64,000 bases of DNA, from assembly GCA_016194705.1 (NCBI GenBank), contig JACQAZ010000015.1:4771-68770 (forward strand), in the 5' to 3' direction. A program made the translations under genes and the position numbers. The notes under the pieces are model-generated. The model worked only from the letters and a program-made list of their open reading frames with translations, was not told the origin of the DNA and made no database searches. Each line of letters opens with the position of its first letter. The stretch's first letter is position 1. This document shows, piece by piece, positions 4,710 through 60,434 of the stretch. The DNA comes from Elusimicrobiota bacterium. GTDB taxonomy: Bacteria > Elusimicrobiota > Elusimicrobia > UBA1565 > UBA9628.

Positions 4710-4760
4710 TCCGTGCGGATTATAGCTAAATAACATTACGCGAATATTACCAAGCAATAC

Positions 4761-30418: not shown

Positions 30419-31164
30419 ACCTGACTCTGAAGGTCTGGCGGCAGAAAGGCCCCAACGACGCGGGCAAGCTCGTCGAGTACTCCGCCCAGGGCGTCTCTCC
30501 GGACATGTCCTTTCTCGAGATGCTCGACGTGGTCAACGAGGGGCTCATCAAGAAAGGCGAGGATGCGATCGCCTTCGACTCCGACTGCCGCGAGGGCATC
30601 TGCGGCATGTGCTCCTTGGTCATCAACGGACAGCCCCACGGCCCGGAACTCGGCACCGCGACCTGCCAGCTCCACATGCGCACCTTTTCGGACGGCGACA
30701 CGATCGTCGTCGAGCCCTTCCGCGCGCGCGCCTTCCCCCCCGTCAAGGACTTGGCCGTCGACCGCTCGGCCTTCGACCGCATCATGCAGGCCGGAGGCTA
30801 CGTCTCGGTCAATACGGGCAACGCGCCGGAGGCCAACGCGAACCTCATCTCGCACCACGTCGCCGAGAAGGCGATGGACGCCGCGGCCTGCATCGGCTGC
30901 GGGGCCTGCGTCGCGGCCTGCCCCAACGCGTCTGCGATGCTCTTCGTCGCGGCCAAGGTCTCGCAGTATGCGCTGCTGCCGCAGGGCCAGCCCGAGCGCA
31001 CGCGCCGCGCTCTCAAGATGCGCGAAGCGATGGACGACGAGGGCTTCGGGAACTGCTCGAATGAGTACGCCTGCGAGGCCGCCTGCCCCAAGGAAATCAA
31101 GGTCTCGAACATCGCGCGCTTCAACCGGGAGCACCTCAAAGCCAGCGTCTGCTCCGAAGAATGA
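30415..31164 (+). CDS. sdhB: Succinate dehydrogenase iron-sulfur subunit
   Basis: 2Fe-2S motif [10 protein letters not shown], and 4Fe-4S/3Fe-4S motifs [12 protein letters not shown] and CEAACP. Confidence 0.9.
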
Positions 31165-38458: not shown

Positions 38459-38619
38459 GCTCTGTCTCCTTAGATATCGATCGATGTCGTACAAGCTGAG
38501 GGTCCCATTATAAAGGAATGGGGCCTAGCACAAGAGGGCCATATGGGACCGCGATAGGAAGTAAAACGCCCTAGGTCCGGTTAGGACCTAGGGCCTATGA
38601 AAGGGCTGGGAAGTCCGGT

Positions 38620-45695: not shown

Positions 45696-45723
45696 GCCGA
45701 GAGTGTAGCAGGTCCGGCTTATT

Positions 45724-45754
45724 TTGTCAATAATTTAGTCAATATAATTGACAA
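45724..45754. promoter_or_regulatory. Inverted-repeat operator TTGTCAAT-N14-ATTGACAA upstream of the Phd/YefM gene
   Basis: Perfect 8-bp arms, with an additional direct copy TAGTCAAT in the spacer. AT-rich, 29 nt upstream of the antitoxin start. Confidence 0.5.
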
Positions 45755-46117
45755 ATTATATCCCCACGAGACGGTCCCTCAAGATGAGAGGTAAAATAGA
45801 GGAAAATGAGACCAAAAAAAGACCATCGCAAGGCGGAGAGGAGAAATGGAAAAGGACCGGAGAATCCCGGTCCGTATTCCGCCGGAAAAAAGACCCAGTC
45901 CGGCTTCCGGAACGGCCGGCCGGGATTCAGCGGACGAAGAGATCGAAACTCCGGCCGCGCTGGAGACGAAAGCCGGATCAAACAAGGGATCGGCAAAAAG
46001 ACCATGAAAGAGCCCCCGCGCGCCGGAAGGCCCGGCTGCGCCCGGGACGGGACCGCTGTCAGGGCTGCGAGGCCCTGAATTCATCCGGAGCAGCCCGCTT
46101 TCCGGGTCTCCGCGAGG

Positions 46118-48346
46118 CTAGCGCCGCTTCTTGCCGCCGGAGCCGATCTTCAACTTGAAGGTGAAGGTCGAGCCCATCGGCTGGGCCGTGGCCAGCGAAT
46201 GCAGGAGGTCCAGCGCGACGCCTTGGCCGATCCAGGCCAGGAACAGGTAAAAATCCGGGCTGATGCCCGCGAAGGCCCCGTAGAAATGGTAAGCCGTCAT
46301 GGTCAGCGCCGCGGAGAGTCCCGCTCCGATGGTCTGCAGCCAATACCCCGTCTTGCCGTTGGAATTCATCCCGCGGAAGAAGTTGAAATGGTGCGCCAGG
46401 AAGAAGAAGGTCGCCACCGGAAAGTTCAGCGCGAATCCCGCGTAGGCGATGCCCGCTCCGACGAGACCCGGCACGAAATACGCCGTCGAGGCCGCCGTGC
46501 CCCCGGCCGTGTCCGCGAAGTAGGCGGCCATCAAGAGCCCAGCGAAGATCATCGCGACCGGGTGCGCCGTGAGCAGGCCCGCGGCGATCACGGCCGCGAT
46601 CGAACCTAGAGCCGCGAGCATTCCCAACGGACTGATCCCGCGCGCCTTCTTGGTCTTGAGGAACAGCCCCGCGACCCAGCCCACGCCGTAGAGCGCCGAG
46701 GCCAAAATGAAAGAACCTGTCAAGACTGCCAAGACAGGATGCGCCTGGGCATAAGGCGTCGCCTGGTCGACGAAGGACGCCAGGGACGCAGTCGAGGGCA
46801 GCGCAAACACGGCCAATGCAGGAGCCCTCGACCTCGCCGCAGACGGCGTCCTTCCCTCGAGCCGCTTGAGCGAGTCGATCGCGGCCGCGTTGGGGCCCTT
46901 GAGCCCCGCGAGCAGGTCCGCCGCGAACTTGTTGTGCATCCAGACGCTCAACTGGTCGAGGTGGGTGTCCATGCCGTGGAAGTCCGCGCCGTTGCCGACG
47001 AGGAGGTTGTACTTCTCTGCCCAGACCAGATACTTGGCCGCCCGCTCGTCGGCGGCCCGCTTGCCGTTGCCGGAGGTCGCGTGGCTCGGGCGGTAGACCT
47101 CGATGCCGTCCATGCCCGATTCAAGCATGGCCTCTACATTCTCGTCCTTCTGCGCGTCGGTCTTACCGCGCACGGTGTACGGGTGGTTGAGGAAGGCCTT
47201 GCCGCCGGCCGCGTGGATGGCCTCGACGACTTCGTCGGGCGTCGGGTCGGAGGGCACGCCGGGCGTGTTGAGGATGTCGCCTTGCAGGTAAGTCTTGAAG
47301 GCCTCGTCGACCTCGCTGATCAGGCCGCGTTTGAGCAAGGCGCGGGCGATGTGGGGAATCTCGATGGTCCCCCCCGCATCATGCTGGGAGAAGGCCTTGA
47401 CCTCGTCGATGGTCATCGAGATGCCCTTCTCTTTGAACTCGTCGAGCGCGTTGAGGTTGTCGATGATGCCTTGAGCCTTCTGGTGGCGCATGATGCGCAC
47501 GCGCTCCAAGAGGGCGACGAGCTTGGCGTTGGTGACGTCGACGTCGATGGCGTTGATGTGCGCGCCGCCCTTGGCGGTCATCTCGACGCCGGTGTGGAAC
47601 TCGATGGGGTCGGCCGGGTTGGCCGCGTTGAGCTCTTGAACCTTCTTCCAGGCGCGCAGGACGCCGGCGGAGGTGTCGTGGTCGGTCAGAGCGATCACGC
47701 GCGCGCCCTTCTTGTAGGCCGCCTCGATGACTGCCTCCGGGGTCATCGTCCCGTCGGAGTAGATGCTGTGCAGATGCAAAGTGATCCGCTCGGTCCAATC
47801 CCGTGGATTGCCTTCCCGCGCGGAGGGCACGTACTGCGCCAGCCGTCCCGGGATGCGGAAGGGAGCCAGGGCCAGCGGGGCCGGGATGCCGTCATGATGG
47901 TAGCTCTCGAAATGGGCGTAGGCCTGGTCCTCGTCGTCGTGATGGATGTGGACCACCGAGAGCTTCGGCGTCCCGTCGTAGATCTCGCTGACGGCCTCGC
48001 TGCCCAGGATGGAATCCTCGATCCCGATCGCGGGCAGGTTCAGCTCATCGGCCTGCTCGAGCCCCGCGCGCGCCTGAGGGCCTTGCCGACGCGGCGCTGG
48101 AGGCGCGAGGGCGCCTTCCCCCGGCGTCAAAGACGCTTCGGGCGCGGCGGGAACGGCTGGGATCGCGGCTTCAACGAGAGGGCTCAGCCCGGGCTGGACG
48201 GGGACCTGGGGCAGACCCTTGCCGGCTTCGACGGGCGCGACGAGAGGCTTGACTTCGCCCAGAGGCTTGACGACGTCTCCGCCGAGGGCGGGAACGCTCA
48301 GGAGGATCGAAAGCCAGAGGAAGGGGAGGCCAGATCTGTTTATCAT
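46118..48346 (-). CDS. PHP-domain phosphoesterase with signal peptide and C-terminal polytopic membrane domain
   Basis: Signal peptide MINRSGLPFLWLSILLSVPALG. PHP motifs HLHSIYSDG and ALTDHDTSAG. The C-terminal ~260 aa contains multiple TM helices. Confidence 0.7.
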   Translation of the reverse strand: MINRSGLPFLWLSILLSVPALGGDVVKPLGEVKPLVAPVEAGKGLPQVPVQPGLSPLVEAAIPAVPAAPEASLTPGEGALAPPAPRRQGPQARAGLEQADELNLPAIGIEDSILGSEAVSEIYDGTPKLSVVHIHHDDEDQAYAHFESYHHDGIPAPLALAPFRIPGRLAQYVPSAREGNPRDWTERITLHLHSIYSDGTMTPEAVIEAAYKKGARVIALTDHDTSAGVLRAWKKVQELNAANPADPIEFHTGVEMTAKGGAHINAIDVDVTNAKLVALLERVRIMRHQKAQGIIDNLNALDEFKEKGISMTIDEVKAFSQHDAGGTIEIPHIARALLKRGLISEVDEAFKTYLQGDILNTPGVPSDPTPDEVVEAIHAAGGKAFLNHPYTVRGKTDAQKDENVEAMLESGMDGIEVYRPSHATSGNGKRAADERAAKYLVWAEKYNLLVGNGADFHGMDTHLDQLSVWMHNKFAADLLAGLKGPNAAAIDSLKRLEGRTPSAARSRAPALAVFALPSTASLASFVDQATPYAQAHPVLAVLTGSFILASALYGVGWVAGLFLKTKKARGISPLGMLAALGSIAAVIAAGLLTAHPVAMIFAGLLMAAYFADTAGGTAASTAYFVPGLVGAGIAYAGFALNFPVATFFFLAHHFNFFRGMNSNGKTGYWLQTIGAGLSAALTMTAYHFYGAFAGISPDFYLFLAWIGQGVALDLLHSLATAQPMGSTFTFKLKIGSGGKKRR

Positions 48347-48711
48347 TGCAGAGATCGTACTCCCATTCGGAACGGCGACATAGGGTCAAAGGGCGCAATC
48401 GGGCGCGAGCATGAGGCCCATCGTTTTTGGGCCCTTCGGTTCCGCCGCTGACGCGCGCTGACAGAGGCGGGCTTGCCCGCACGGCTCCCGCGCGCCATCA
48501 TAGTAATGACTCCCGCCGAGGAGTCGGAGGTCCTGTGCACCATCACATCTTCTGGCGGCTGGTGATCGCGGTCTTCCTCGCCCTCAACGCGATCCTCGCG
48601 TTGCGCTCGCACGACTCGAGCAAGCCGGGCACGATCCTTGCCGGCGCGGTCTCGTTCTCTTCGAGCCGTTGAAAGCGGCCGGCGCCGCTATGGTATACTC
48701 GCATCAGTTCC

Positions 48712-50385
48712 ATGCCCGCGCTCCTCTGCTCCCTGCTGGCCGCCTCGCTCCTCGCGGCTGAACCCGAACTCATCCTCGCTCACGGTCGCGTCTTCATCGC
48801 CCCGGGACGCTACGCCCAGGCCGTGGCGGTCGTCTCCAATCGCATCGAGTCGGTCGGCAGCGACGCGGCGGTGCTGGCGCTCAAAGGGCCGGCGACCCGC
48901 GTCGTCGATCTCAGGGGCCGCGCCGTGACGCCGGGTTTTCACGACAGCCACACCCATTTCCTCCGAGGCGCGCTCTCACTGACCCAGGTCGACCTCACCG
49001 GCGCCTCGGACATCCAGGAGATTCAGCGCAGGCTCGCCGATTACGCCGTCAAGAATGCGACGGCCGTCTGGATCATCGGGCGCGGCTGGGACCAGACCTC
49101 GTGGGCGCCTGGCGCCTATCCGACCCGCGCCGACATCGACGCCGTGGTTTCGACGAGGCCGGTCGCGCTGGCCGACGCGGACGGGCGCGCGCTGTGGCTC
49201 AATACCGAGGGGCTCAAGCGCGCAAGAATCACCTCGCGCACGCCCAGGTTCAACAGCGGGCAGTTCATCAAGGACGACAAGGGCGAACTCACGGGCCTCC
49301 TGCTGGACGAGGCCACCTCCCCGGCCATCGCCGCCATACCGGCCCCGTCGCGCGCCCAAAAGCTCGACGCCCTGCGCAGGGCACTGGCCTTGGCGCGAGA
49401 ATCCGGCGTAACGGCCGTCGAGTCTCTGCAGGGCCCGTTCGACGCTTTGCCATCCGAGCAGCTCGACCTGTGGAAAGAGCTCTACAAGAACGGCGACGCC
49501 ACGCTGCGCTATTTCCTCTACGGACGCCTCGAGGATCCCGGCGGGTTCTCCAAGCTCAGGAAAACGGTGCGCGACATCCCGAGGGATCGGCTCGATCTCA
49601 TCGGGGTCAAGGGCCTCGTCGACGGGACCTTCAAAGACCGCACGGCGGCGCTGCTGCAGCCCTACTTCGACGCCAATGCCAGCGGCGCGCTCAAGCACCA
49701 GACCTTCTCGCTCAACTCGATGATCCGCCGCGCCCACCAGGACGGCCTCCAAGTGGCGCTGCACTGCGTCGGCGACCGCGCGGTGCGGGCCGCGCTCGAC
49801 GCCTGCCAGAAATCTCAGGAGAGGGCGCGCCAGGAGGAACTGGTCCTGCCGCCCTACCCGTGCAAGCTCGAGCACGTCGAAGACGTCGACGCGAAGGACC
49901 TGCCGCGTTTCGCCGGCCTCCACGCTGTCGCCTCGATGCAGCCGAGCCGCATGATCTTCGATGATGAAGAACGAAACTACTACCCCAATAGGCTCGGCTC
50001 CCGCGTGCAGCGCAGCTTCGCCTGGAAGAGCCTGGAGGACGCCGGGGCGCTGGTGAGCTTCGGCACGGACTGGCCCGCGCTGCCGCTGGCGCCGCGCGTC
50101 GGGCTGTTCGCCGCCGCGACGAGGCGGCACCGCAACGGCAAGCCGGAGGGCGGCTGGATTCCCGCGGAAAAAATCTCGCTCGAGTCGGCCGTCGCGCACT
50201 ACACGGCCGACCCGGCCCGGGCCATCGGCCGAGACGATGCGATGGGCCGGGTCAAGCCGGGACAGCTTGCCGATCTCGTCGTCTTCGACCGGGATCTCTT
50301 CTCGACCGCGGGCTTGGATTTGCTCAAGGTGCAGGTCGACATGACGATCTTCGACGGCAAGATCGTCTACGAGCGAAAGCCCTAA
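48712..50385 (+). CDS. Amidohydrolase-family metal-dependent hydrolase (Amidohydro_3-like)
   Basis: Signal peptide. Metal-binding motifs GFHDSHTHF and …ALHCVGD…. Confidence 0.75.
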   Translation: MPALLCSLLAASLLAAEPELILAHGRVFIAPGRYAQAVAVVSNRIESVGSDAAVLALKGPATRVVDLRGRAVTPGFHDSHTHFLRGALSLTQVDLTGASDIQEIQRRLADYAVKNATAVWIIGRGWDQTSWAPGAYPTRADIDAVVSTRPVALADADGRALWLNTEGLKRARITSRTPRFNSGQFIKDDKGELTGLLLDEATSPAIAAIPAPSRAQKLDALRRALALARESGVTAVESLQGPFDALPSEQLDLWKELYKNGDATLRYFLYGRLEDPGGFSKLRKTVRDIPRDRLDLIGVKGLVDGTFKDRTAALLQPYFDANASGALKHQTFSLNSMIRRAHQDGLQVALHCVGDRAVRAALDACQKSQERARQEELVLPPYPCKLEHVEDVDAKDLPRFAGLHAVASMQPSRMIFDDEERNYYPNRLGSRVQRSFAWKSLEDAGALVSFGTDWPALPLAPRVGLFAAATRRHRNGKPEGGWIPAEKISLESAVAHYTADPARAIGRDDAMGRVKPGQLADLVVFDRDLFSTAGLDLLKVQVDMTIFDGKIVYERKP

Positions 50386-51449
50386 CGGCGTCTCTGGCGC
50401 CGTTCGTCTCTCGGCTGCTGACGCTGCTGCTGCTGTTGGCGCCGCTGTCCTTGCTGCTCCTCTCGCTGACGCTGTCTCTCCCGCCCAAATTCTTCGCGCC
50501 GCTTCGCTTTCTCCTGTTGACGCTGCTGACGCCCCTCGCTCTCACCTTGCTCCTGCGGGGGCCGCAGATGCTGGCGGCGCTTCGGGGCCGGGCCCCCCTC
50601 TTGGTTCTGAAGGCGCTTTTGGCGGCCGCGCCGCAGGAGGTTTTGCCTCGCCCGCAAATGCCCGTATTTTCTGCCCTGCATCTGCCGCCTCACGCCCTTG
50701 AGGTGGCCGCCTCGCACCGTCTGTTTGCTCCGCAAGCGCTGCCGCCATTCTCGGCGCAGCTTCGCGTCGCGCCGAGTCCAGTTCTTCGAGACCTCGCCCG
50801 CCCGATGCCGGACGAACTCGAACCTCCGCCGGCTTCCCGCGAAATGGCGCAGAGTCGCGGGCTGCCCCAGCGCCTTGTCCTTGTGCACCTCGAGCTCCTG
50901 GCCTGGCCCCAGCTGCGCGGACTCCTTTCCCCCGACGGCCGTGACGGCGACCTGGCCCTCGTCGAAGACGCCGACGCGGGCCGGCTGGTCGTCGCCCTCC
51001 TGGGAGACCGCCAGTTCCGTGCCGCGCACGGCGGCCACGGCTGTGGGGGTGTGGAACTCCATGCTCTGTCCGTCGAGCAAATGCTTGATCTTGGCCAGGA
51101 TCGAGCCGATGCCCACATGAAACTCGGTATGCTCCGGGGCCAGCGAATTGACGATGAAATCCGAGTTGGGCGAGATCGAGATCACGGATTCGCCGTCGAG
51201 CGTGAACTCCGCCGTGCCGTCCTCGCCGGTGCGGATCATGTCGCCGTCCTCGATGGTCGCGTCCGCCTCGGCCGGGATGAACTCGCCCTCCTGATGGTCG
51301 TGCAGGTGCAGGTAGACCGTACCCTCGACCGAGGTGAGGCGCGCCTCGCGGTCCGCGTCTTCGGGCTGGTCCTGCGTAGAGGCCGACAGAGAACCCGCCG
51401 CGATGAGCGCGGACACGGCGGCGGCCGTCCAACGGCGTTTGGTTCCCAT
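50382..51449 (-). CDS. FecR-domain protein with extreme Arg/Gln-rich C-terminal tail
   Basis: Start at MGTKRRWTAAAVSALIAAGSL (signal anchor). FecR-like β-rich region. The last ~150 aa are R/Q/E low complexity encoded by CAG/CGS repeats. Confidence 0.6.
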   Translation of the reverse strand: MGTKRRWTAAAVSALIAAGSLSASTQDQPEDADREARLTSVEGTVYLHLHDHQEGEFIPAEADATIEDGDMIRTGEDGTAEFTLDGESVISISPNSDFIVNSLAPEHTEFHVGIGSILAKIKHLLDGQSMEFHTPTAVAAVRGTELAVSQEGDDQPARVGVFDEGQVAVTAVGGKESAQLGPGQELEVHKDKALGQPATLRHFAGSRRRFEFVRHRAGEVSKNWTRRDAKLRREWRQRLRSKQTVRGGHLKGVRRQMQGRKYGHLRARQNLLRRGRQKRLQNQEGGPAPKRRQHLRPPQEQGESEGRQQRQQEKAKRREEFGRERQRQREEQQGQRRQQQQQRQQPRDERRQRRR

Positions 51450-51603
51450 GGCGAGCTTCCCGGAGTATAACAAGTCTTTGTTACATTCACAAGTAGGCGG
51501 CCGTCGGTCCCATGGTCCCACTGCGGAGTAGTCCCAATGTGTCCCCCTTGTGGCCCTATGGACCTATAGGGTCTAGACCCAGCGGACGCTATAATGGAAC
51601 GCA

Positions 51604-53316
51604 ATGGAAAATATCACGCGCGACATCAGAAGCATCGCCGCTGTCTTGTTCTTCTTTTCACCGGCCGTCCCGTCCCGGGCCGTGGATTTCAACGCCGCAC
51701 CCAAGGGAGAGACCCGCGCGCTGCCGGCGCCCGCGCCGATCCCCCGCACGCTCGCCGGTTCGCTGGAGCTCAAGACCCAGGACCTCGCCGCGGGACTGCC
51801 GGCCGGGATCACTCTCGAGGACGGACAAAGGCTCGTGTCCCCCGGGACCGTGCCCCAAGCCGCGCCGGGCTCTGCGTCCGCGAGTCCGAGCGTGCCGCAA
51901 GCGCCCTCTCTCGGTGAGCCGATCGCGCCCGCACAAGCCGGCGCTCCCATCGCCGACGCCGACGTGCGCGGCAAGACGCTCCTGCTCGTCGGCACGCGCG
52001 GCTCGCGTCCCTTCATCATCGAGGAGGCCGTGCGCGTGGCCAACGAGCTCGGCTTGAACCTCGTGCTGCTCGACAAGGAGGAGAACCGGAAGAACTCCGA
52101 GTCCCTGGTCCCCGAGACCGATTTCTTCTCCGCGCCCATCGACCGCCGCGACGACAGGTCGATGAAGTCGATCGTCGCGCAGGTCCAGCAGCTCGCCTCC
52201 GAGCGCAAGATCGACTACGTCATGGCCTTCCGCAGCCACCACGCCAAGCTCGTCGGCAAGATCGTCGACGCGACCGGCATCTCGGGAGTCCCAGGGAAGG
52301 TGGCGCTCACCGCCGAGGACAAGGCCCGCACGCGCAAGGCCCTCAACGCCGCGCCCGACCAGTTCGTCCCCTACCGGGAGGTCAAGACCGCCGACGAGGT
52401 CCGCGAGTTCTACAGGCAATACGGCGGCTCGGGCAAGTTCGTCATGAAGTCCAAGCTCGGCGAGAACAGCCGCTTCGTGGAGCTCGACATCGATTCTGAG
52501 GAGAAGCTCGTTTCCGCATTCACCAAGATGGACGCGGCCCTGCGCGCCGAGGCGCGCAAGAAGGAGTCGAGCGACACGATCTTCAACCGCTTCCCCGGGA
52601 TCATGGTCGAGAAGATGCTGCAGAAGGCGCCGGGCACCGTCGAGGCCTCGGTCGAGATGGTCGTCCAGAACGGCAAGGTCAAGTTCGCCATGGTCTCCGA
52701 CACGCACGGCATCGGCCCCAAGGGCGAGCTCGCGGGCGGCAGCATGACCTTCCCCTCTCAGATGAGCGAGCCCGTCAGCCAGGCCCTGATCGCGGCCTCG
52801 GCCCGGGCCCTGGAGATCATCGGGCTGCGCAACGGCAACGCGCGCATCGACATCATGATGACGCCCGACGGCCCCAAAGTCATCGAGATCAACCCGTTCC
52901 TCGGGGGCGCGGCCATCTACACCGCGATCAAGCTCGTGACCGGGATCAGCCTCGTGGAATGGGGGATTCGCGCGACGCTCGGCCTGTCCCTGCCCGGCGG
53001 TCCCGCGCACAAGACGGTCGTCGACTACCGCTTCGCGGCCTCGCAGCACACGGGCTCCATCATCGCGCTCGAGGGCGTCGAGCAGGCCAAGGCCCTGCCG
53101 GGCGTGGCGCACGTCCAGCTGCTCGCCGGACGCGGCGATTCGGTCGCCGCCCCCATCGAGAACGGCTTCGAGGAGTGGGCCGAGGTCATGGGCACCGGAC
53201 CGACCTTCGAGGCGGCCCGGCGCGCGAGCATCGCGGCGCTGGCGAAGATCAAGGCGGTGGTCGTCGTCGACCAGACCGCCGATTACCTGCAGCCCAAGCC
53301 CGAGGAAAGGAAGTAG
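51604..53316 (+). CDS. ATP-grasp-fold enzyme with predicted signal peptide and Pro/Ala-rich linker
   Basis: Signal-like N-terminus MENITRDIRSIAAVLFFFSPAVPSRA. Pre-ATP-grasp plus ATP-grasp core (…IEINPFLGGA…). Confidence 0.7.
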   Translation: MENITRDIRSIAAVLFFFSPAVPSRAVDFNAAPKGETRALPAPAPIPRTLAGSLELKTQDLAAGLPAGITLEDGQRLVSPGTVPQAAPGSASASPSVPQAPSLGEPIAPAQAGAPIADADVRGKTLLLVGTRGSRPFIIEEAVRVANELGLNLVLLDKEENRKNSESLVPETDFFSAPIDRRDDRSMKSIVAQVQQLASERKIDYVMAFRSHHAKLVGKIVDATGISGVPGKVALTAEDKARTRKALNAAPDQFVPYREVKTADEVREFYRQYGGSGKFVMKSKLGENSRFVELDIDSEEKLVSAFTKMDAALRAEARKKESSDTIFNRFPGIMVEKMLQKAPGTVEASVEMVVQNGKVKFAMVSDTHGIGPKGELAGGSMTFPSQMSEPVSQALIAASARALEIIGLRNGNARIDIMMTPDGPKVIEINPFLGGAAIYTAIKLVTGISLVEWGIRATLGLSLPGGPAHKTVVDYRFAASQHTGSIIALEGVEQAKALPGVAHVQLLAGRGDSVAAPIENGFEEWAEVMGTGPTFEAARRASIAALAKIKAVVVVDQTADYLQPKPEERK

Positions 53317-53336
53317 GCTAACCGGCCCCATCGTCC

Positions 53337-54665
53337 GTGGCCTCCATGCTGCCCTTTCTCCTCTGCGCCGCCGCAGCGCTCGCGGGCCCTGTCGTCGAAC
53401 GACCCGAGGACCCTCGGCCCGTCGCGGAGCTTCGGGCCGCGCCGACCCTACCCGCGAACTTTGAGGCGGGCAGGACTCTCACGCCGGATTCCGCGTTTCT
53501 CAAACTGGGGCTCATCGTTCCCGTCATCGTCGAGACCGGCCCGCTTCCCGCACCCTCGACGCTCCCCGGCGGGACCCCTCAGGCGAAGGGCCATGACGCG
53601 GATCCCGCCGTTCCCGCTTCGCGCCGCGAGGCCGCGTTGGCTCTTGAGGAGCCCGCGGTCTCGTTCGACGGCGCGCGGCATATCGCCGCCCGCGCGGCTC
53701 TGCTGACGCAGCGCGCCGCGACCTTGCCGGCGCACCTGTGGCCCTTCTCGAATTTGGCCAAGAAGCTCTCGCACGGCGAGGGGCTCGCGGGCCTGACCCC
53801 CTCCGGCGCGGTCGCGGCCGCGCGAAAAATCCGATCCGATCATCGCGCCCCCGCCGTGATCGGCCGGCTGTCCTGGGAACTGCACGACGTCTGGTCGGTG
53901 CGCGGCGCCGTGAGATCGTACGCGAGGCTCATCGACGCCGTGGCCGAGGCGAAGTCCAAGGATCCGAAGGTCGACGTCTCCATCTCGCTCGACGTCGAGT
54001 CCCTGGGGGCCCAGCTCGACGGGCTGAGCTTCCCTGAGAAGACCCGCATCGCCATCGCCAACGCCACCGCGCTAGCGCGTCGGGCCCGCGACCGCGGCAT
54101 TGCCATCGAGTTCGACATGGGGGCCTCGGCTGTGATGCCTCTGCTGCTCGACGTCGCGCGTTCCGTGGTCCGGAAGCTGGGCACGCCCGCGCGCCTGGCC
54201 CTCTCGGCGCGTTATTTGGCCTCCGAGGAAGCGCTTCGGAATTGGTCCGCGCTGGCGCGCGAGACGGGGCTCAGGCTCGGCGTGCGGCTGGTCAAGGGCT
54301 CGTTCATCGAAGGCGATAAGCCCGGAACCCTCTATTTTCGGCGTGCGCTCCTGGAGCAATACAAGAAGCTGATCACGCAGGCGCTGGAACAGGGCGACGC
54401 GCTCGACGTCGCGGTCGCCACCCACAACGAGGAGATCTGGGAACACGCTGAGGCCCAATCAAGACGGCTCGGCGCGCCTTATTCTCTCCAGGTCATCCGC
54501 GGGGTCAATCGCAAGCTGCAAAGGAGGATGCGCGCTTCCGGGAACATCCCCCGGGAGTACGTCTCGTACGGCGTCGACACTCCCGTGATGGCGCTGATGG
54601 AATGGTGGACCAACTGGCGGCAAAAGCGCGCTCTGCGAAGACGCGTCGACGGCGAACTCGACTAG
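53337..54665 (+). CDS. Proline-dehydrogenase-family (PRODH-like) protein with predicted signal peptide
   Basis: Motifs RLGVRLVKGSFIEGD, VATHNEE and EYVSYGVD resemble the PRODH β8α8 domain. Signal-like N-terminus MASMLPFLLCAAAALAGP. Confidence 0.6.
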   Translation: MASMLPFLLCAAAALAGPVVERPEDPRPVAELRAAPTLPANFEAGRTLTPDSAFLKLGLIVPVIVETGPLPAPSTLPGGTPQAKGHDADPAVPASRREAALALEEPAVSFDGARHIAARAALLTQRAATLPAHLWPFSNLAKKLSHGEGLAGLTPSGAVAAARKIRSDHRAPAVIGRLSWELHDVWSVRGAVRSYARLIDAVAEAKSKDPKVDVSISLDVESLGAQLDGLSFPEKTRIAIANATALARRARDRGIAIEFDMGASAVMPLLLDVARSVVRKLGTPARLALSARYLASEEALRNWSALARETGLRLGVRLVKGSFIEGDKPGTLYFRRALLEQYKKLITQALEQGDALDVAVATHNEEIWEHAEAQSRRLGAPYSLQVIRGVNRKLQRRMRASGNIPREYVSYGVDTPVMALMEWWTNWRQKRALRRRVDGELD

Positions 54666-54704
54666 GCTTGCGCGGGGGCGGCCGGGCTGTTATAATCACG
54701 GCTG

Positions 54705-55526
54705 ATGAAGGCCGCCAAGCTCACCCAAGAGAACCTCGATGACATCGACCAGCACACCCGCGACAGGATCGGGATCAGCACGCTCGAGCGCTACACGGGC
54801 AGTTCGGCTTCCGAGTTCCAGCCGTACGTCCTGCTGACCAATTTCAAGCTCTACGTCCGAGCCTTCGCCGAAATCCAGAAAACGCCCGTCCACAAAGGCT
54901 CCGTCATGCGGGCATGCCATTCCCCCAAGGACGGCATCTCCATCATCGATTTCAGCGTCGGGTCTCCGACCGCGGCGCTGGTCGTCGACCTGCTGTCCTT
55001 CATCAAGCCCAAGGCCGTGATCATGCTCGGCCTTTGCGGAGGCTTGCGGGAGGAGTACGAGGTCGGCGACTTCTTCAATCCGGTGGCGGCCATCCGCAAC
55101 GAGGGAACTTCGGCGAGCTACATGCCGCCGCAATGCCCCGCGCTGAGCTCGTTCGTGCTCCAGCGCATAGCCTGCGAGGAGCTCGAGAAGCGCAGACTCA
55201 AGTACCATACCGGGGTCATCCACACCACCAACGTCCGCTTCTGGGAGTTCAACGAGGAGTTCAAGGCCAGCCTGGCCGCCGAGCGCGCTCAAGCCATCGA
55301 CATGGAATGCGCCACTCTCTTCATCGTCGGCTACGCGCGGCGCGTGCCGATGGGGGCCTTGATGCTGATCTCGGACGTGCCCCTAAAGAAAGGCGGCATC
55401 AAGACGGCCGACTCGGCGAAGAAGCTATTCGAGAAATACACCGGACTGCACATCGACATCGGCATCGCCGCGCTCAAGACCGCCCAGGCCCGGGAGAAGG
55501 CCGGGGGCCTCGACTTCCGCTTCTAG
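54705..55526 (+). CDS. Nucleoside phosphorylase/nucleosidase, PNP_UDP_1 family
   Basis: Conserved AIDMECATLF and phosphate-binding loop region (GLCGG). Confidence 0.7.
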   Translation: MKAAKLTQENLDDIDQHTRDRIGISTLERYTGSSASEFQPYVLLTNFKLYVRAFAEIQKTPVHKGSVMRACHSPKDGISIIDFSVGSPTAALVVDLLSFIKPKAVIMLGLCGGLREEYEVGDFFNPVAAIRNEGTSASYMPPQCPALSSFVLQRIACEELEKRRLKYHTGVIHTTNVRFWEFNEEFKASLAAERAQAIDMECATLFIVGYARRVPMGALMLISDVPLKKGGIKTADSAKKLFEKYTGLHIDIGIAALKTAQAREKAGGLDFRF

Positions 55527-55527
55527 G

Positions 55528-56655
55528 TCACCTCTCGAGGTCGACCGGCGCGGCGGGGTCCTTGCGGTCGGGCTGGCCCACCACCCAATAGGGGAGGACC
55601 GGATCGTAGTAGGTGCAGCGGCGGCAGACGTCGGGATGGTCTCCCCGCGCCTGACGGTCCAAGAGTTCCCGCAAGGCCGGACCGCTCAGGATTTCGCTCA
55701 AGCTCTGCTTGCCGAGGTCTCCGATGATCAAAGTCGCCTCGACGTCGCGCGCCGCGCAGGCGTTGACGCGCCCGTCGGCCAGGACCACGGGGCCCGTCAG
55801 GGGCCAATGGCAGGGGCCCTTCTTGACGGGCATGGGCCGGGCCACGAGGCCCGCGTCGGTGAGCTCGCGTTCCTTAATATGCCCCGCCCAAGAGTCGAAG
55901 GCCCCCATCCAGGTCATCTCGATGACTCCGTCCTTCTTGGCCGCCAAGAAATAGTCCCAGAGCTCGCCCTTGTTGTTGTCGCGGGGCGTGCGCAGGTTGA
56001 TCTGCAGCCCGAGCGTCGAGCCCGAAGCGCGCTTGGCCTCGATGGCGGCCTTGATGTTGGGCGCCGCGGCGTCGAATTTGTCGACCCCGAAGACCTTGAG
56101 GTAGGTCTGCCGGTCGAAGCCGCCGAAGGAGATGTAGACGCGCAGCTTGGCGCCGTACTTGAGCAGCTTCTGCGAGAGCTCGGGCTTCATGCCGATGGCG
56201 TTCGTGAAAAAGTGAAAGCGCCGAAGCTCGGGTTTGGAAGCCAGGTAGTCCAACCTCTCGAAGATCTTGCCGTCGACGAACGGATCGCCGACGATCGGCG
56301 TGAGGTCGACCTCGGTGCCGCCCATCGCCGCGTACTGGTCGATGACCGACTTGAAGAGCTCCATGGGCATGACTTTCTTGGGCCGCTGCATCTCCGGGTA
56401 GGCGCAGAACACGCACTCGGCGTTGCAGATGTTGGTGCCCTCGATGTAGAGGGAATGCGGCCAGGCGCCGATCCTCACGATGCGGTCCAGGCCCGGCACC
56501 CTCATGAGGGCGTAATTGAGCAAGGTCGTCCCCCACGAATATTTGGCCGCGACCCATGAATAGGCTCGGGGCCCGGCGACCGCGCGGACGGTTTTCTTAG
56601 CCGCGTCGCGGATCGGGTGCCACCAGGAGGCGCTCGGGATGGTGCGGGTCGGCAT
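55528..56655 (-). CDS. Radical SAM protein with C-terminal Cys-rich (SPASM-like) region
   Basis: rSAM motif TNICNAECVFC (CxxxCxxC) and C-terminal Cys residues (CHWP…C…CRRC). Confidence 0.75.
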   Translation of the reverse strand: MPTRTIPSASWWHPIRDAAKKTVRAVAGPRAYSWVAAKYSWGTTLLNYALMRVPGLDRIVRIGAWPHSLYIEGTNICNAECVFCAYPEMQRPKKVMPMELFKSVIDQYAAMGGTEVDLTPIVGDPFVDGKIFERLDYLASKPELRRFHFFTNAIGMKPELSQKLLKYGAKLRVYISFGGFDRQTYLKVFGVDKFDAAAPNIKAAIEAKRASGSTLGLQINLRTPRDNNKGELWDYFLAAKKDGVIEMTWMGAFDSWAGHIKERELTDAGLVARPMPVKKGPCHWPLTGPVVLADGRVNACAARDVEATLIIGDLGKQSLSEILSGPALRELLDRQARGDHPDVCRRCTYYDPVLPYWVVGQPDRKDPAAPVDLER

Positions 56656-56694
56656 GAGGTCTCGCGTGTAGGATACCAGCGGCGGCGGGGCCTG

Positions 56695-57705
56695 TCAAGT
56701 ATCGGGAAGGATGCGCCCGCGCAGCGAGACGAGCCAGCGCTTGGTACGGTAGAGCTCGTGGCTCCGGATGTAGACCGCGGGAGAGACCAGCGCCAAGAGC
56801 AAGGTCGAGCAGCGGAAAAAGCCGAGGCTCGTGAGGCCGTGCCGCCTGAAGAGCTGCCGCCAGAGCGCGAAGGCCTCGCCGCGGCGCCCTTCGTGCATCG
56901 CGACCAGAATCTCGCGGCGGTTGACGTCGAGATCCTCCAGAAACTTGTACATGGGCGAGAACTCGAGCCCCCGAGCCTTCAATTTGGGAACGAGATAGCC
57001 GTCGAAAGTCCTTTGCAGCTCCAGGCCCATGCGCAGCTTCTTGGGGCTCAGGTAGCCCTCGGCCCAATTGTTCTGGCCGTGAATGCGGTGATAGCCCTTC
57101 GCGACGGAAAGATTCACGGCATCGCTGACAAATAGCCCGTGGACGGTCACGTAGATGTCGGCGGTGTAGAAGACGTCGAGCGGCAGAGGACCGACCTCGG
57201 CGAGCACCGAGCGCCGCAGGGCCACGCCGCTGGCCGCCGCCAGGGCCGCGCCGCCGGCCAGGAAGTCCTTGAGCGTGTAGCGGGGCGGCCAGCCCGGAAG
57301 GACGGTGTCCAGCGCCCGCCCCTGGGCGTCGACGTCGATGAGCGGGTGCTGGACGATGCCGACGGAAGGATCTTCGAAGCAGGCCGCCGCGACCTTCATC
57401 TTGTCGCGGTCCCAATAATCGTCGGAGTCGAGAAACATCACGATCTCGCCCCGGGCCGCCTGTATGCCCGCGTTGAAGGCCCCGGCTTGGCCCGTGTTTT
57501 TCTGGGCGATGAGCTTGATGCGGTCCCCGAATCCCTGCGCGACCTTGAGCGAGTCGTCGGTCGAGCCGTCGTCGACCAGGATGACCTCCTTCTTTGAGTC
57601 CGGGTAGTCCTGGCCGAGCGCGCTGTCGAGGCACTGCTTGAGAAAGCGGCCGTAGTTGTAGTTGTCGATGACGACCGAGACCAGCGGCAAGAACGCCTCG
57701 TTCAC
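56695..57705 (-). CDS. Family-2 glycosyltransferase
   Basis: VSVVIDNYNYGRFL and the DxD context FLDSDD. Confidence 0.8.
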   Translation of the reverse strand: MNEAFLPLVSVVIDNYNYGRFLKQCLDSALGQDYPDSKKEVILVDDGSTDDSLKVAQGFGDRIKLIAQKNTGQAGAFNAGIQAARGEIVMFLDSDDYWDRDKMKVAAACFEDPSVGIVQHPLIDVDAQGRALDTVLPGWPPRYTLKDFLAGGAALAAASGVALRRSVLAEVGPLPLDVFYTADIYVTVHGLFVSDAVNLSVAKGYHRIHGQNNWAEGYLSPKKLRMGLELQRTFDGYLVPKLKARGLEFSPMYKFLEDLDVNRREILVAMHEGRRGEAFALWRQLFRRHGLTSLGFFRCSTLLLALVSPAVYIRSHELYRTKRWLVSLRGRILPDT

Positions 57706-57732
57706 GAATCCATTCTATAACATCGGCCCCGG

Positions 57733-58233
57733 CTAGGGCGCCGGCGCGTAGCCGTAGCGCAGCCAGTGCAGACGGGCGCTCGCGCTGGCGAGGTCGACGA
57801 CGAAGAGGTTGTCGTACTCCCGGTCCCCGAGTTCCTCTTTCGGACCGTCCGAGACGCCCAACGACTTCAGAAGATCGGGGATCGTGTCCGAGTGCGCCAC
57901 CACGAGCACGTCGTCGCCCGCGTGGTCGGCTCGCAGAGTCTTGGCCAGCGCCGCCGTTTCCTCGGCTTTGACCTGGATCGGCTTTAGCTTGTGCCCCGCG
58001 GCGGCGGGCTCGGCGGTCTGGCGGGTGCGCTGGAACTGCGTCACATAGACCGACTGCAAGGGGACCCGGCTCAAATATCTGGCCAAATCCGCCGCTCGTT
58101 TGCGGCCCGCGGCGGTCAGCGGCGGGTCGTCGGTCTTCTTCGTCGCGACTTTCTCCGCGTGGCGCACGACATAGATCGCGGCATCCGACGGCAGCGAAGA
58201 CAATGCCGCGGCCAGAACCAGGATCAGTCTCAT
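57733..58233 (-). CDS. Histidine-phosphatase-superfamily (SixA/PGAM-like) secreted protein
   Basis: Signal peptide. Catalytic RHAEK motif and VAHSD. Confidence 0.7.
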   Translation of the reverse strand: MRLILVLAAALSSLPSDAAIYVVRHAEKVATKKTDDPPLTAAGRKRAADLARYLSRVPLQSVYVTQFQRTRQTAEPAAAGHKLKPIQVKAEETAALAKTLRADHAGDDVLVVAHSDTIPDLLKSLGVSDGPKEELGDREYDNLFVVDLASASARLHWLRYGYAPAP

Positions 58234-58234
58234 G

Positions 58235-60337
58235 CTATTTGTTCTGTGGAGGAGCGACGCGGCGCGAGAGCAGGAAATACCCGGCCGCGGTCAAGGTGCA
58301 GTAGATCCCGAGGCCGATAAAGGCCGCGGAGCCGAAGAGCTGGAACAGGATGCCCCAGACCATGAAGTTGACGACATAGGAAAGGTTGGTCAAGGTCCGG
58401 TCGGCGCCCACGACATAGGCCTTGGTCCTCTTGGGCATGCGGTCGAGCAGCAAGGTGTCGAGCTGGGTCAGCGCGACCTGGCCCGTGTAGCCGATCAGGA
58501 TCAAAGCAGGGGACACCGCGAAAAGCGGCCAGATCAGCCACGAGGCGACATGGGCCTTGGCGAGCAGCACTCCCCCGCCGATGGCGGCCAGCGCGATCCA
58601 TTTCAGCGACTTCAGAAGAGTCGTCTTGGACGCGAACTGGCCCTTGCGCCAAGCCCATATCCCGAGGGCGGCCAGTCCGACGAGTCCCGCGATGCCGATG
58701 AAGGGCGCGGCCGCCATGACGGGCCCGGCCACCGTGCCGATCGAGACCTGCGAGACGAACAGCCAGCCGCTCAGCATGGTGAGCGCCGCCCAGCGCAGGG
58801 CCTTGGCGGCGCTGGCCGACATGAGCTTGGACTGCGCCGCGGGCCGCTCCTTCTCGGGCAGGCTCTCGGTGCTCTCCTCGATGCTGCGCGAGACCGCCGC
58901 GTTGGTCAGCGCCGCCCCGTTGGCGCCCATCCCCAGCAAGCCGATCAATGCCGAGGCCGCGGCGGCCGCCATCCCCATGTTCCCGTGCGCGAAGAAGACG
59001 CCGAAGGCCGTGCCCGTGACGTAATAAAGCAGATAGACGAAGTTGTTGATCAGCAGGCGCGCGAGGAACAGAGGCCTCATCTCCGGCCGGAACAAGCGCT
59101 TGAAGCCGGCGAACAACGGAACCTTGCGCATGCGCCCCGAAAGCATCTGCGGCAGGCTGCGCAGGGCGAACGCGAGAGCCGCGGCCCCGGCGAACAAGAA
59201 GGGTGCGGCGTAGATCACGGCGCCGAAGCCCTTGGTCGCGATGAGCAGGCCCGTGATCATCGTCGTGAACACGGTGCCGTACTCGACGAAGTCGCGCAGC
59301 GTGCCGAAGCGGTTCGAGGCGACCGGGGAATCCTTGAACCACTCTCCCTGCAAAGTCCGTTCGGCCACGCGGCCCATCGAATGCACGAAATAGTCGAGGC
59401 TGAAAAGCGCGATCAGGGGCGCGATCGGCATCACGCCGTGGTGGGAGTGGAAGATGTAAGCGACGCCGGCCCAGATGAACGCGCGAGAGGCCAGCACGGT
59501 CCGGTAGACCCGGGCCAGCCCGACGCGCTGCACGAGCCGCCCGCCGAGGAAGCTGCCGATCGCGTAGGCGAGGTAGCTCGTCGAGGCCAGGCCCGCCAGC
59601 GCGATGAAGCCGTTCTTGAGCGGGTCCGTCATTTGAGGGACCGCAAGGGCCAGCGATTCGACGGCGAGTTGGATCAACAGGAAGGTCGAGAAGAAGCCCA
59701 AGACCTTGCCGGACAGGACCGAGAGCTGCTCTTTCTTCGAGGGAGCGGGAGGCCCCTTCGGGTCCTCGGCTGGAGCCCGGCTTGCCTTCTCAAGCGACGG
59801 CGCCGCGGCGACGCCGCCGGTAATCTCGGCCGGCCCGGATTTGCGCACGAACCCGCGCTCTTCGGCGTGCTCCCAGACGCGCTCCTCGAGTCCGCCCTTG
59901 TTCTCGCGTCCCAACCCGCCGAATTCGCCTTTCCCGGCGGGTAGAGCCTCTGTCAGGCCCGCGGCTCCGGGAGTCTCAAGGCCCGGAGCGATGCCCTCCG
60001 GAGAGGCTCCCGGGACGACGGGGGCTCCGATCTGGACCCCCGCGGGATTGACGAGCGCGGTCGGAAGGGGCGTCTGCTGCGACGCTGGACCGCTCGTCGG
60101 CGCTTCGCTCCCGGGCACCGCGAGGGTCCCGCCGACCCCGGCCGTCGCGAGAGGATCGAGGTTCGTCGCGCCGAGCTCGACGCGCGGGAGCCCTCCGGCG
60201 GGATTGGCGGGCGCGGGGCGTGGCGCCGCCGAAGGGGCTGGGGCCGGCTTCTCGACGAGGCCCCCGCCGGCGAGCGCGGGCTCAGCGGCCAAAGCCAGGC
60301 TCAGCAGAGCTGCCAGCGCGCGGCTAAGAATCCTCAC
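58235..60337 (-). CDS. MFS transporter with ~230-aa Pro/Ala-rich N-terminal extension
   Basis: Twelve TM helices in the C-terminal 470 aa. N-terminus carries a signal-like segment and a PA-rich low-complexity region. Confidence 0.7.
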   Translation of the reverse strand: MRILSRALAALLSLALAAEPALAGGGLVEKPAPAPSAAPRPAPANPAGGLPRVELGATNLDPLATAGVGGTLAVPGSEAPTSGPASQQTPLPTALVNPAGVQIGAPVVPGASPEGIAPGLETPGAAGLTEALPAGKGEFGGLGRENKGGLEERVWEHAEERGFVRKSGPAEITGGVAAAPSLEKASRAPAEDPKGPPAPSKKEQLSVLSGKVLGFFSTFLLIQLAVESLALAVPQMTDPLKNGFIALAGLASTSYLAYAIGSFLGGRLVQRVGLARVYRTVLASRAFIWAGVAYIFHSHHGVMPIAPLIALFSLDYFVHSMGRVAERTLQGEWFKDSPVASNRFGTLRDFVEYGTVFTTMITGLLIATKGFGAVIYAAPFLFAGAAALAFALRSLPQMLSGRMRKVPLFAGFKRLFRPEMRPLFLARLLINNFVYLLYYVTGTAFGVFFAHGNMGMAAAAASALIGLLGMGANGAALTNAAVSRSIEESTESLPEKERPAAQSKLMSASAAKALRWAALTMLSGWLFVSQVSIGTVAGPVMAAAPFIGIAGLVGLAALGIWAWRKGQFASKTTLLKSLKWIALAAIGGGVLLAKAHVASWLIWPLFAVSPALILIGYTGQVALTQLDTLLLDRMPKRTKAYVVGADRTLTNLSYVVNFMVWGILFQLFGSAAFIGLGIYCTLTAAGYFLLSRRVAPPQNK

Positions 60338-60434
60338 GAATAGATTCTATCGCACCGGGAGACGGCCGAAGTGGGTCCTTCGACTGCACAGGAGGGAGTC
60401 AATGGGCCCGCGCCGACGGTCCCCTTCGTCCTAC

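Follow-up and report, generated by a model that had tools for sequence, protein, structure and literature searches.

The subject of this study is a 154-bp intergenic gap (51450-51603) in a 64,000-nucleotide stretch of genomic DNA from an Elusimicrobiota bacterium (contig JACQAZ010000015.1); the whole of this stretch is referred to below as the window. The gap separates a FecR-domain gene on the minus strand, 51450 being the first base beyond the start of that gene, from an ATP-grasp gene on the plus strand, and it contains two back-to-back promoters, one per strand. Most of the analysis concerns the ATP-grasp promoter, for which a note made from the sequence without database searches (hereafter the original prediction) had described a region packed with palindromes and a leaderless or near-leaderless transcript under repressor/activator control. 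The gene identities assigned in the note hold: the product of the minus-strand gene matches the Pfam FecR domain (residues 71-163; sole Pfam match, 1.2e-9), while that of the plus-strand gene matches ATP-grasp_3 plus LAL_C2. The nearest Protein Data Bank entries of the ATP-grasp protein are 3vot (L-amino acid ligase) and BacD. The protein is identical (100%) to HY077_06900, and the signal peptide and Ala/Pro-rich linker at its N-terminus are kept in 20 homologues.

The comparative set consisted of 37 related loci (referred to by L numbers), all from Elusimicrobia metagenome-assembled genomes (MAGs) or metagenomes. The closest relative is locus L001, whose ATP-grasp protein is 70% identical to that of the window. 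For the ATP-grasp orthologues (24 loci), the codon preceding the conserved signal peptide was taken as the start.

A perfect TATAAT (51590-51595) lies 8 nt before the ATG at 51604, as the original prediction had stated, with its first T 14 nt upstream of the ATG. The Shine-Dalgarno motifs GGAG, GAGG, AGGA, and AAGG are all absent from the intervening gap GGAACGCA, and an in-frame TAA at 51592-51594, located inside the TATAAT itself, excludes a start codon further upstream. Given a TATAAT followed by 8 nt and an ATG, transcription would be expected to begin at the start codon or 1-2 nt before it. A consensus scan paired no -35 element with the plus-strand TATAAT, the corresponding slot reading TAGGGT.

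Orthologous promoters have the same architecture. A -10-like hexamer was found 6-13 nt ahead of the start codon in 20 of the 24 ATP-grasp orthologue loci, mostly without a Shine-Dalgarno sequence. The distance between the hexamer and the start codon was 6 nt in three loci, 7 nt in two, 8 nt in eight, 9 nt in four, 10-11 nt in two, and 13 nt in two; it was longer than 13 nt in only three. A GGAGG-type Shine-Dalgarno is present in three orthologue loci (L007, L008, and L030), two of them with the longer gap and one with the 13-nt gap, and L019 has a 19-nt gap and no Shine-Dalgarno. The hexamers found at this place include TATAAT, TGnTAACAT, TACTAT, TATACT, TTTAAT, and similar sequences, and the arrangement is conserved among orthologues of only 42-75% protein identity. 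On this comparison, the TATAAT at 51590-51595 is predicted to be a genuine -10 element.

The same start pattern is common in the window. Among 41 genes chosen for a survey of starts by third-position GC content, ~17 lack a Shine-Dalgarno and have a TANNNT hexamer placed 6-12 nt upstream of their first start codon; in 14 of these, the distance is 6-9 nt. The background of this pattern over all ATG/GTG codons is 0.1-0.5% per offset, so that roughly 1-4% would be expected overall. In L001, five of the six called genes start in this way. Examples in the window are the starts at 4736(-), 21635(-), 27843(+), 33372(+), 45695(-), 54705(+), 57705(-), and 60337(-), often with a TG extension. Leaderless starts thus appear to be what operon-first genes of this Elusimicrobia lineage use by default, so that the ATP-grasp gene is typical in this respect. 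An in silico criterion for leaderless genes, as described in PMC3160421, places TANNNT ~10-14 nt (about 12) ahead of the start codon, and the ATP-grasp promoter falls within this range. Conservation among orthologues, the common architecture of the genome, and agreement with this criterion bear out the leaderless or near-leaderless reading of the original prediction: an ATP-grasp mRNA without a Shine-Dalgarno sequence is supported, its start site being inferred from sequence. Literature searches returned no report of leaderless genes or promoters specific to Elusimicrobia.

Canonical TTGACA-17-TAnnnT promoters were found elsewhere in the window, ahead of the genes starting at 18084, 56655, 45695, and 4796, and this form is the predicted conventional housekeeping promoter of the organism. 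Several automatic start calls of ATP-grasp orthologues disagree with the position expected from the -10 element: 3989 versus 4001 in L002, 3980 versus 4001 in L004, 2623 versus 2581 in L006 (P0009), and 2485 versus 2509 in L017/L034 (P0020). The called N-terminus of P0009 (MAEKSPDAIIKIVK) would be translated from the promoter's own TATAAT region. The -10 rule would correct the gene models of several MAGs in this respect.

Upstream of the -10 element, the ATP-grasp promoters share a module of short boxes. To describe it, promoters were stacked without gaps, and positions were counted from the first base of the -10 hexamer; this gave 40 unique promoters. Box A (GGTCCCAC) is found at -76 in 22 of the 40, and some promoters, that of the window included (51506-51513), carry an extra copy at about -84. 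Box B begins at -62 or -61 in 33/40, and its spacing to the -10 tolerates essentially no insertions or deletions across promoters. A GGNCC box in reverse orientation (TGGGACC) follows about 38-41 nt before the -10 and is located at -38 in 11/40 promoters. A MAFFT alignment of 23 orthologous upstream regions revealed conserved islands in otherwise diverged sequence, with the tandem GGTCCCA boxes among the most conserved columns both there and in the -10-anchored alignment. A conserved cis-element of the kind implied by the "repressor/activator control" of the original prediction is thus present; it consists of box A, box B, and the proximal box (51506-51556) and not of the palindromes that had been singled out.

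A position weight matrix trained without sequences from the window or L001 scored 29.4 at 51500 and predicted the -10 exactly at 51590. Only 3 of 127,902 window positions reach a score of 10, and both top matches predict a perfect TATAAT at the right base. A profile built from columns -82 to -43 alone also places a TATAAT-like hexamer at precisely the expected offset, and it does so even for promoters outside the training set (L007 at 755, L027 at 2404, and L018 at 2602). Box-B-like words (GTAGGTCTTTTGTAC, GCTAGGCCCCATTCC, and GCTAGGCCCAAAGTGC) were also seen directly against other -10 hexamers, at 19860-19885 (-), at 38514-38528 (-), and in L001 at 5824-5849 (+); the box-B word is thus used at a second, proximal position in other promoters.

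The highest matrix score in the window, 33.3 (at 38602, -), belongs to the promoter of a LonB-like gene, which is preceded by a clear second copy of the module (Table 1). Its box B lies 62 nt before the -10, and the leader downstream of the -10 is 48 nt long and contains an AAGGAG Shine-Dalgarno. The encoded protein (1279 aa) has a signal peptide and Pfam AAA_32 and LonB_AAA-LID matches, and its orthologues (N-terminus "MIIEKTAAKKSLAV...") carry the module in 12 loci. In several genomes, these orthologues are found back to back with the ATP-grasp gene or at a distance of one gene from it, and the ATP-grasp gene is adjacent to a Lon-like gene in L010-L027. In L027 (2450-2599), the ATP-grasp and LonB-like promoters themselves stand back to back, their modules ~80 bp apart and in opposite orientation.

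Two further genes of the window, encoding a major facilitator superfamily (MFS) transporter and a PHP-domain protein, are probably preceded by the module as well. Ahead of the MFS gene, a box-B-like word occurs exactly 62 nt before the hexamer. Since the matrix score of this copy was weak, a prediction was made and tested on three newly fetched stand-alone MFS orthologues. The promoter was the best or second-best match in each of these loci (scores of 19.8 in L036, 8.2 in L037, and -8.1 in L035), with box B at -61 or -62 and a leaderless-type start. The MFS promoters of L034 and L006 also agree with the module. The ATP-grasp protein is fused to an MFS protein in P0018-22 and P0033-35, and an MFS gene lies downstream of the ATP-grasp gene in L002 and L003. 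At the PHP gene of the window, box B again lies 62 nt before the -10 hexamer, and the promoter of the PHP gene in L036 scores 11.0. In L001, a gene for a 541-aa signal-peptide protein also carries the module. As the ATP-grasp, LonB-like, MFS, and PHP genes are adjacent or fused in relatives, they would form a small regulon.

Table 1. Predicted features of the intergenic gap, its flanking genes, and the other module-bearing promoters of the window (negative positions and distances to the -10 refer to the first base of the -10 hexamer).
Feature	Position	Strand	Details
FecR-domain gene, 355 aa	50382..51449	-	ATG 51449; signal peptide, FecR domain, R/Q/E-rich tail
Sigma-70-type promoter of FecR-domain gene	51464..51492	-	-35 TTGTGA (51492-51487), 17-nt spacer with TG, -10 TATACT (51469-51464)
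Inverted repeat TAACAA-N4-TTGTTA	51468..51483	.	inside spacer of FecR-gene promoter
Tandem GGTCCCA boxes, two	51506..51521	+	GGTCCCAT starting -84; box A GGTCCCAC at -76 to -69 (51514-51521)
Box B GTAGTCCCAATGTG (family consensus GTAGGnCCnTTGnC)	51528..51541	+	starts 62 nt before -10
Proximal box CTTGTGGCCC	51547..51556	+	aligns with TTGTGGGACC / GTGGGACC of orthologues
GGNCCTA-type box GGACCTATAGG, 30 nt before -10	51560..51570	+	only in closest relatives
Palindrome CCTATAGG	51563-51570	.	within GGACCTATAGG
Perfect 12-bp palindrome GGGTCTAGACCC	51569..51580	.	unconserved in closest orthologous promoter
GGTCTAGACC	51570-51579	.	inside perfect 12-bp palindrome GGGTCTAGACCC
-10 hexamer TATAAT, ATP-grasp promoter	51590..51595	+	no canonical -35 16-18 nt upstream
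8-nt discriminator GGAACGCA, then ATG (51604)	51596..51606	+	expected transcription start 51602-51604, 5' untranslated region 0-2 nt
ATP-grasp / L-amino-acid-ligase-like gene, 570 aa	51604..53316	+	N-terminal signal peptide, Ala/Pro-rich linker
Module copy 2, LonB-like gene (ATG 38458)	38507..38596	-	box A GGTCCTAA 38588-38581; box B CTAGGGCGTTTTAC 38574-38561; TATAAT 38512-38507
Module copy 3 (probable), MFS gene, 700 aa (GTG 60337)	60344..60425	-	box B GCGGGCCCATTGAC 60411-60398; TAGAAT 60349-60344, 6 nt, GTG
Module copy 4 (possible), PHP-domain gene (ATG 48346)	48354..48434	-	box A GGGCCCAA 48434-48427; box B ATGGGCCTCATGCT 48421-48408; TACGAT 48359-48354, 7 nt, ATG

The neighborhood of these genes (46118-60337, compared with L036 and L037) is conserved: PHP(-), Amidohydro_3(+), the FecR-domain and ATP-grasp genes with others, and MFS plus His_Phos_1. 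In L036, the MFS-His_Phos_1 pair comes right after Amidohydro_3, and in L037 a FecR-domain gene stands directly ahead of the MFS gene. Because of this conservation, the window may be seen as a rearranged version of one gene cluster. The products of the module-bearing genes of the window (51604-53316 +, 34619-38458 -, 46118-48346 -, and 58235-60337 -) all carry a signal peptide of the Sec type together with a linker rich in Ala and Pro. In three of them, these precede normally cytoplasmic domains (the ATP-grasp ligase, LonB-like AAA+, and PHP), and the fourth is the MFS transporter, which has a signal peptide of its own. If the ATP-dependent enzymes did lie outside the cytoplasm, this would be unusual.

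The elements listed in the original prediction (CCTATAGG, GGTCTAGACC, the TATAAT, the 8-nt gap, and the ATG) are all present exactly where it had placed them. The claim that the region is packed with palindromes did not withstand comparison with shuffled sequences. The gap contains two perfect palindromes of at least 8 bp (P = 0.11 for the count in 2000 dinucleotide-preserving shuffles; P = 0.04 for a 12-mer palindrome), and palindromes of at least 12 bp number 48 in the whole window. The 12-bp palindrome GGGTCTAGACCC is absent from the L001 promoter, the closest orthologue, and from all other orthologous promoters; it probably reflects a pair of degenerate, oppositely oriented boxes, or chance. 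The shuffle test, together with the missing conservation, led us to reject palindromes as the main feature of the promoter. It is correct that both palindromes overlap the slot of a -35 element, but neither forms one, there being no TTGACA-like hexamer that pairs with the TATAAT. In the window, L001, and L015, the shorter palindrome, CCTATAGG, keeps a distance of 27 nt to the -10; L006 has it as CCTATGG, 26 nt from the -10. A same-strand heptamer, [GAT]GNCCY[ACT] (GGNCCYA type), occurs eight times on the plus strand of the gap versus 1.7 expected (P = 0.0005) and once on the minus strand. As this pattern was picked after inspection of the sequence, we relied on the comparative data instead. 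A genome-wide GTCCCA repeat was also considered and rejected, since 39 copies in the window versus 28.5 expected is only a mild enrichment.

The exported FecR-domain gene is predicted to be driven by a conventional sigma-70-type promoter with a short leader. This minus-strand promoter was the sole promoter-like match of the consensus scan in 51300-51750 (9 of 12 positions matched; 0.1 expected from shuffles), and its -10 ends 14 nt ahead of the ATG. The inverted repeat TAACAA-N4-TTGTTA in its spacer could be an operator; because it is not present in L001, we leave it as a possible candidate.

The original prediction had also placed the FecR-domain protein among anti-sigma partners of an extracytoplasmic function (ECF) sigma factor. 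What the protein shares with FecI/FecR signaling is only the Pfam FecR domain (PF04773). Here, an N-terminal signal peptide (MGTKRRWTAAAVSALIAAGSLSA), directly followed by the FecR domain, replaces the N-terminal anti-sigma domain; neither a cytoplasmic anti-sigma domain nor a transmembrane segment was found in the protein. With the NCBIfam anti-sigma model, the protein reaches 26.9 bits, the cut-off being 200. The best NCBIfam matches, all far below cut-offs, are the exported Leptospira FecR-domain adhesins/lipoproteins Lsa33, Lsa19, and LipL45, which the window protein resembles. We conclude that it is a predicted exported protein and not an anti-sigma factor, and for a FecR-domain protein without anti-sigma features no ECF partner is expected. 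Sigma70_r2/r4 domains were found in none of the 38 window proteins scanned (a set that leaves out some small open reading frames), and no ECF sigma gene was seen nearby. In further contrast to FecI/FecR systems, the window copy of the module contains no GGAAC-N16-17-CGT promoter, and the gene pairing is not conserved: a FecR-domain gene stands divergent to the ATP-grasp gene only in the window and L001/L005, and elsewhere this place is taken by a CN-hydrolase-like or other gene. Since the neighbor varies between genomes, the module belongs to the ATP-grasp gene rather than to the FecR-domain gene. The proposed FecR/ECF link was rejected on these three grounds, namely, the exported character of the protein according to Pfam and NCBIfam, the scan for sigma factors, and the variable neighbor. 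The last ~150 residues of the FecR-domain protein (50385-50850, -) form a low-complexity stretch rich in R, Q, and E, and its L001 orthologue (2675-3100, -) contains long (QQQRQQQ)n runs.

Our preferred reading, to which we assign a probability of roughly 0.6, is that the ATP-grasp gene would be transcribed from a -35-less, leaderless regulon promoter served by a putative sequence-specific DNA-binding activator. The upstream module (box A at -76, box B at -62, and the nearer GGNCC-type boxes) would take the place of the -35; a putative DNA-binding protein would bind boxes A and B and recruit or stabilize RNA polymerase at the -10 in the manner of class-I/II activators; and the ATP-grasp, LonB-like, and probably MFS and PHP genes would share this control as a small regulon. 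An activator is proposed because the -35 is missing while the -10 is good, because a possible dyad and further GGNCC boxes are present, the latter down to about -30, and because the module recurs before linked genes; it is from such features, together with conservation and rigid spacing, that we infer protein binding and activation instead of repression. The putative dyad would be an imperfect 8-6-8 repeat of box A and the left half of box B (GGNCCYAC-N6-GTAGGNCC), with its center ~65 bp upstream of the -10. Its complementarity is 44% overall versus ~26% in shifted controls and reaches 66% in the Lon-like family, the Lon copy of the window having perfect 10-bp arms. A bolder version, which we hold to be improbable, is that a hitherto unrecognized regulon of this uncultured Elusimicrobia clade would co-express exported ATP-dependent machinery (ATP-grasp and LonB-like AAA+) with a PHP phosphoesterase and an MFS transporter, and that the long, rigid upstream element of its promoters would be read by a lineage-specific factor or polymerase appendage outside the known activator families.

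Several observations weigh against the activator promoter proposed here. The dyad stands out in the Lon-like family only, being weak (36%) in the ATP-grasp family. Neither the surroundings of any locus nor the 38 window proteins scanned yielded a candidate regulator; the gene neighborhoods of seven loci contain no conserved regulator gene, and that of L004 contains histidine kinases and receiver-only response regulators with no DNA-binding output domain. By the matrix, the window copies at the MFS gene (score -2.4, z = 1.8) and at the PHP gene (weak; score 2.9, z = 2.4) are within noise. The 8-nt gap between the TATAAT and the ATG exceeds the ideal of 6-7 nt by 1-2 nt, and, were transcription to begin upstream, the GGA at 51596-51598 might serve as a vestigial Shine-Dalgarno. 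In the L010 clade, three one-sided changes in the pairing between box A and TGGGACC are all wobble-compatible on the plus strand, as would suit an RNA. Last, all sequences come from the MAGs of one phylum, and because some promoters share descent, promoter counts are not independent events.

Among the other explanations, the one closest to the view of the original prediction takes CCTATAGG and GGGTCTAGACCC, which lie over the -35 region, as operators of a dimeric repressor that would occlude polymerase at an otherwise constitutive promoter. Both palindromes do exist between -39 and -10 from the expected start, and the 27-nt distance of CCTATAGG to the -10 is kept in three loci. This explanation nevertheless appears distinctly unlikely: the palindrome density is at chance level, the 12-bp palindrome is missing from all orthologues including the closest, the conserved elements lie 50-85 nt before the -10, where lone repressors rarely act, and a promoter without a -35 would not be constitutive unaided. 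The boxes might instead be a tandem promoter for an alternative sigma factor, with box A (GGNCC) as an ECF-like -35 and box B (CGATT/CGTTT) as the -10, or with box B as a sigma-54-type GG-N10-GC element. This would imply a second, upstream start, a leader of 50-60 nt or more, and possibly a link to the FecR-domain protein. A GGTCC-N14-16-CG(A/T)TT arrangement is indeed visible in L014, L025, and the Lon-like promoters, and GGTAGTGCGATTGC of the L010 clade fits GG-N10-GC, but box B of the window, GTAGTCCCAATGTG, has neither CGT nor GG-N10-GC, and the best-conserved letters of box B (TAGG...TTG) would sit in the spacer. An independent upstream promoter also gives no reason for the rigid distance to the downstream -10. 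Neither an ECF nor a sigma-54 gene is present among the 38 window proteins scanned, and the FecR-domain protein, which has no anti-sigma domain, neighbors the ATP-grasp gene only in the closest relative. We regard an alternative-sigma promoter as very unlikely; both its ECF and its sigma-54 (GG-N10-GC; TGGCAC-N5-TTGC) forms were set aside as fitting some clades only (the L010 clade for sigma-54) and not the window copy. A T7-like promoter, suggested by CTATAGGG, was likewise dismissed: only the initiation-region word matches, nothing upstream of it is similar, and a phage polymerase is not to be expected here.

If transcription started upstream of 51506, the boxes would be part of a structured 5' leader (a riboswitch, a protein-binding leader, or a small RNA), and the TATAAT would be incidental or secondary. 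A -10-like TATCAT just upstream of the module in L012, L014, and L026 is consistent with this, as is the complementarity of GGTCCCAC and GTGGGACC in the L010 clade, where the three substitutions mentioned above keep G-U pairs. Searches for structure gave nothing of the kind. No Rfam family was found in 51300-51800, the only match being a chance snoRNA (E = 3.7). RNAalifold returned 0 pairs for the 23 loci and, for the 10 most similar promoters, a weak 8-pair structure (-4.8 kcal/mol) with 0 compensatory changes. Single-sequence folds of the window were no better than shuffles on either strand (z = +0.68 and -0.42). The pairing of box A with TGGGACC breaks down in the window, in L006, L011, and L018, and throughout the Lon-like family. 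The GGWCC core of box A reads the same on both strands, and where T and A are swapped in it (L011 and L018), no matching change is seen downstream. A leader would also leave the exact 61-62-nt distance between box B and the -10 unexplained: this distance is fixed, whereas the start codon may lie anywhere from 6 to >50 nt after the -10, as would be typical of a promoter element and not of a leader. RNA structure is thus unsupported, and the module appears to act as a DNA element; because of the wobble-compatible changes in the L010 clade, we keep the RNA explanation at a low but non-zero probability, the lowest of those considered. A DNA element, in turn, need not involve a dedicated regulator. 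The module could be read by the RNA polymerase holoenzyme itself or by a general architectural protein, in the way of an UP element or a Fis/IHF site, or it could be a relic of a duplicated promoter cassette, retained through common descent and not for a regulatory role. A fixed distance to the -10 would be required if polymerase contacted the boxes directly or if the DNA were wrapped, and the box-B-like words beside the three other -10 hexamers listed above point in the same direction. Set against this, the full module is rare, with two clear copies in 64 kb and ~40 genes, and many other leaderless promoters of the window lack it; from genome to genome, it goes with one particular set of linked genes; its boxes are GC-rich, unlike known UP elements; and the sequence between them has diverged to randomness, so that a simple recent duplication cannot explain the pattern. 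We consider a module without its own regulator unlikely, though less so than the repressor, sigma-factor, and RNA explanations.

On the preferred reading, the ATP-grasp promoter is probably an example of a familiar kind of regulation, a leaderless activator-type regulon promoter, found in an uncultured phylum. It is not a new principle of gene regulation; the unusually long and rigid upstream module and the link to signal-peptide-bearing ATP-dependent enzymes set it apart. The analysis suggests promoter rules for this phylum: leaderless operon-first genes, a TTGACA-17-TAnnnT housekeeping promoter, and at least one small regulon with a rigid module. The shared module links four poorly understood genes (for the exported ATP-grasp ligase and the LonB-like AAA+, MFS, and PHP proteins), a link at which gene order only hints. 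The 50-nt motif is directly usable for genome scans, by which the regulator and the regulon could be found.

Elsewhere in the window, a Phd/YefM antitoxin gene (ATG 45695, -) has a promoter (45696-45760) with a canonical TTGACA-17-TACACT followed by 6 nt and the ATG. Repeated ATTGAC(A/T) words (tttgtcaattatattgactaaattattgacaaaataag) precede this promoter and are likely an autoregulatory operator array for the leaderless antitoxin gene. An 1809-aa open reading frame (22275-27701, -) gave no Pfam match; near it lies a gene for an ankyrin-repeat plus caspase-like (Peptidase_C14/CHAT) protein (31161-32465, +).

Activator-dependent sigma-70 promoters, which have a good -10 and no -35, include class I/II promoters of CRP/FNR, NtcA-type promoters (GTA-N8-TAC plus TAN3T), and promoters with OmpR/PhoB site arrays. 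The ATP-grasp promoter resembles these in its good -10 and missing -35, in upstream sites that do not tolerate insertions or deletions, in a possible ~22-bp imperfect dyad (8-6-8) and several sites spanning ~-100 to -40, and in the occurrence of the same sites before functionally linked genes. It differs from CRP class I promoters in that the dyad center would lie ~77 bp upstream of the presumed start, off class-I phasing. To our knowledge, the box sequences GGTCCCAC and GTAGGnCCnTTGnC match no described motif. In its downstream part, the promoter is comparable to the leaderless "TA-led" genes of Actinobacteria and Deinococcus-Thermus (Zheng et al. 2011, PMC3160421; Deinococcus deserti, PMC4007540). 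The phylum is different, Elusimicrobia not being among those named in the portion of PMC3160421 available to us; the start site here is derived from sequence alone, and the gap is 8 nt versus the ideal 6-7 nt. The likeness lies in a TANNNT -10 starting ~12-14 nt before the start codon with no Shine-Dalgarno, in a high-G+C genome, and in the large share of genes concerned, which amounts to ~40% of those sampled in the window.

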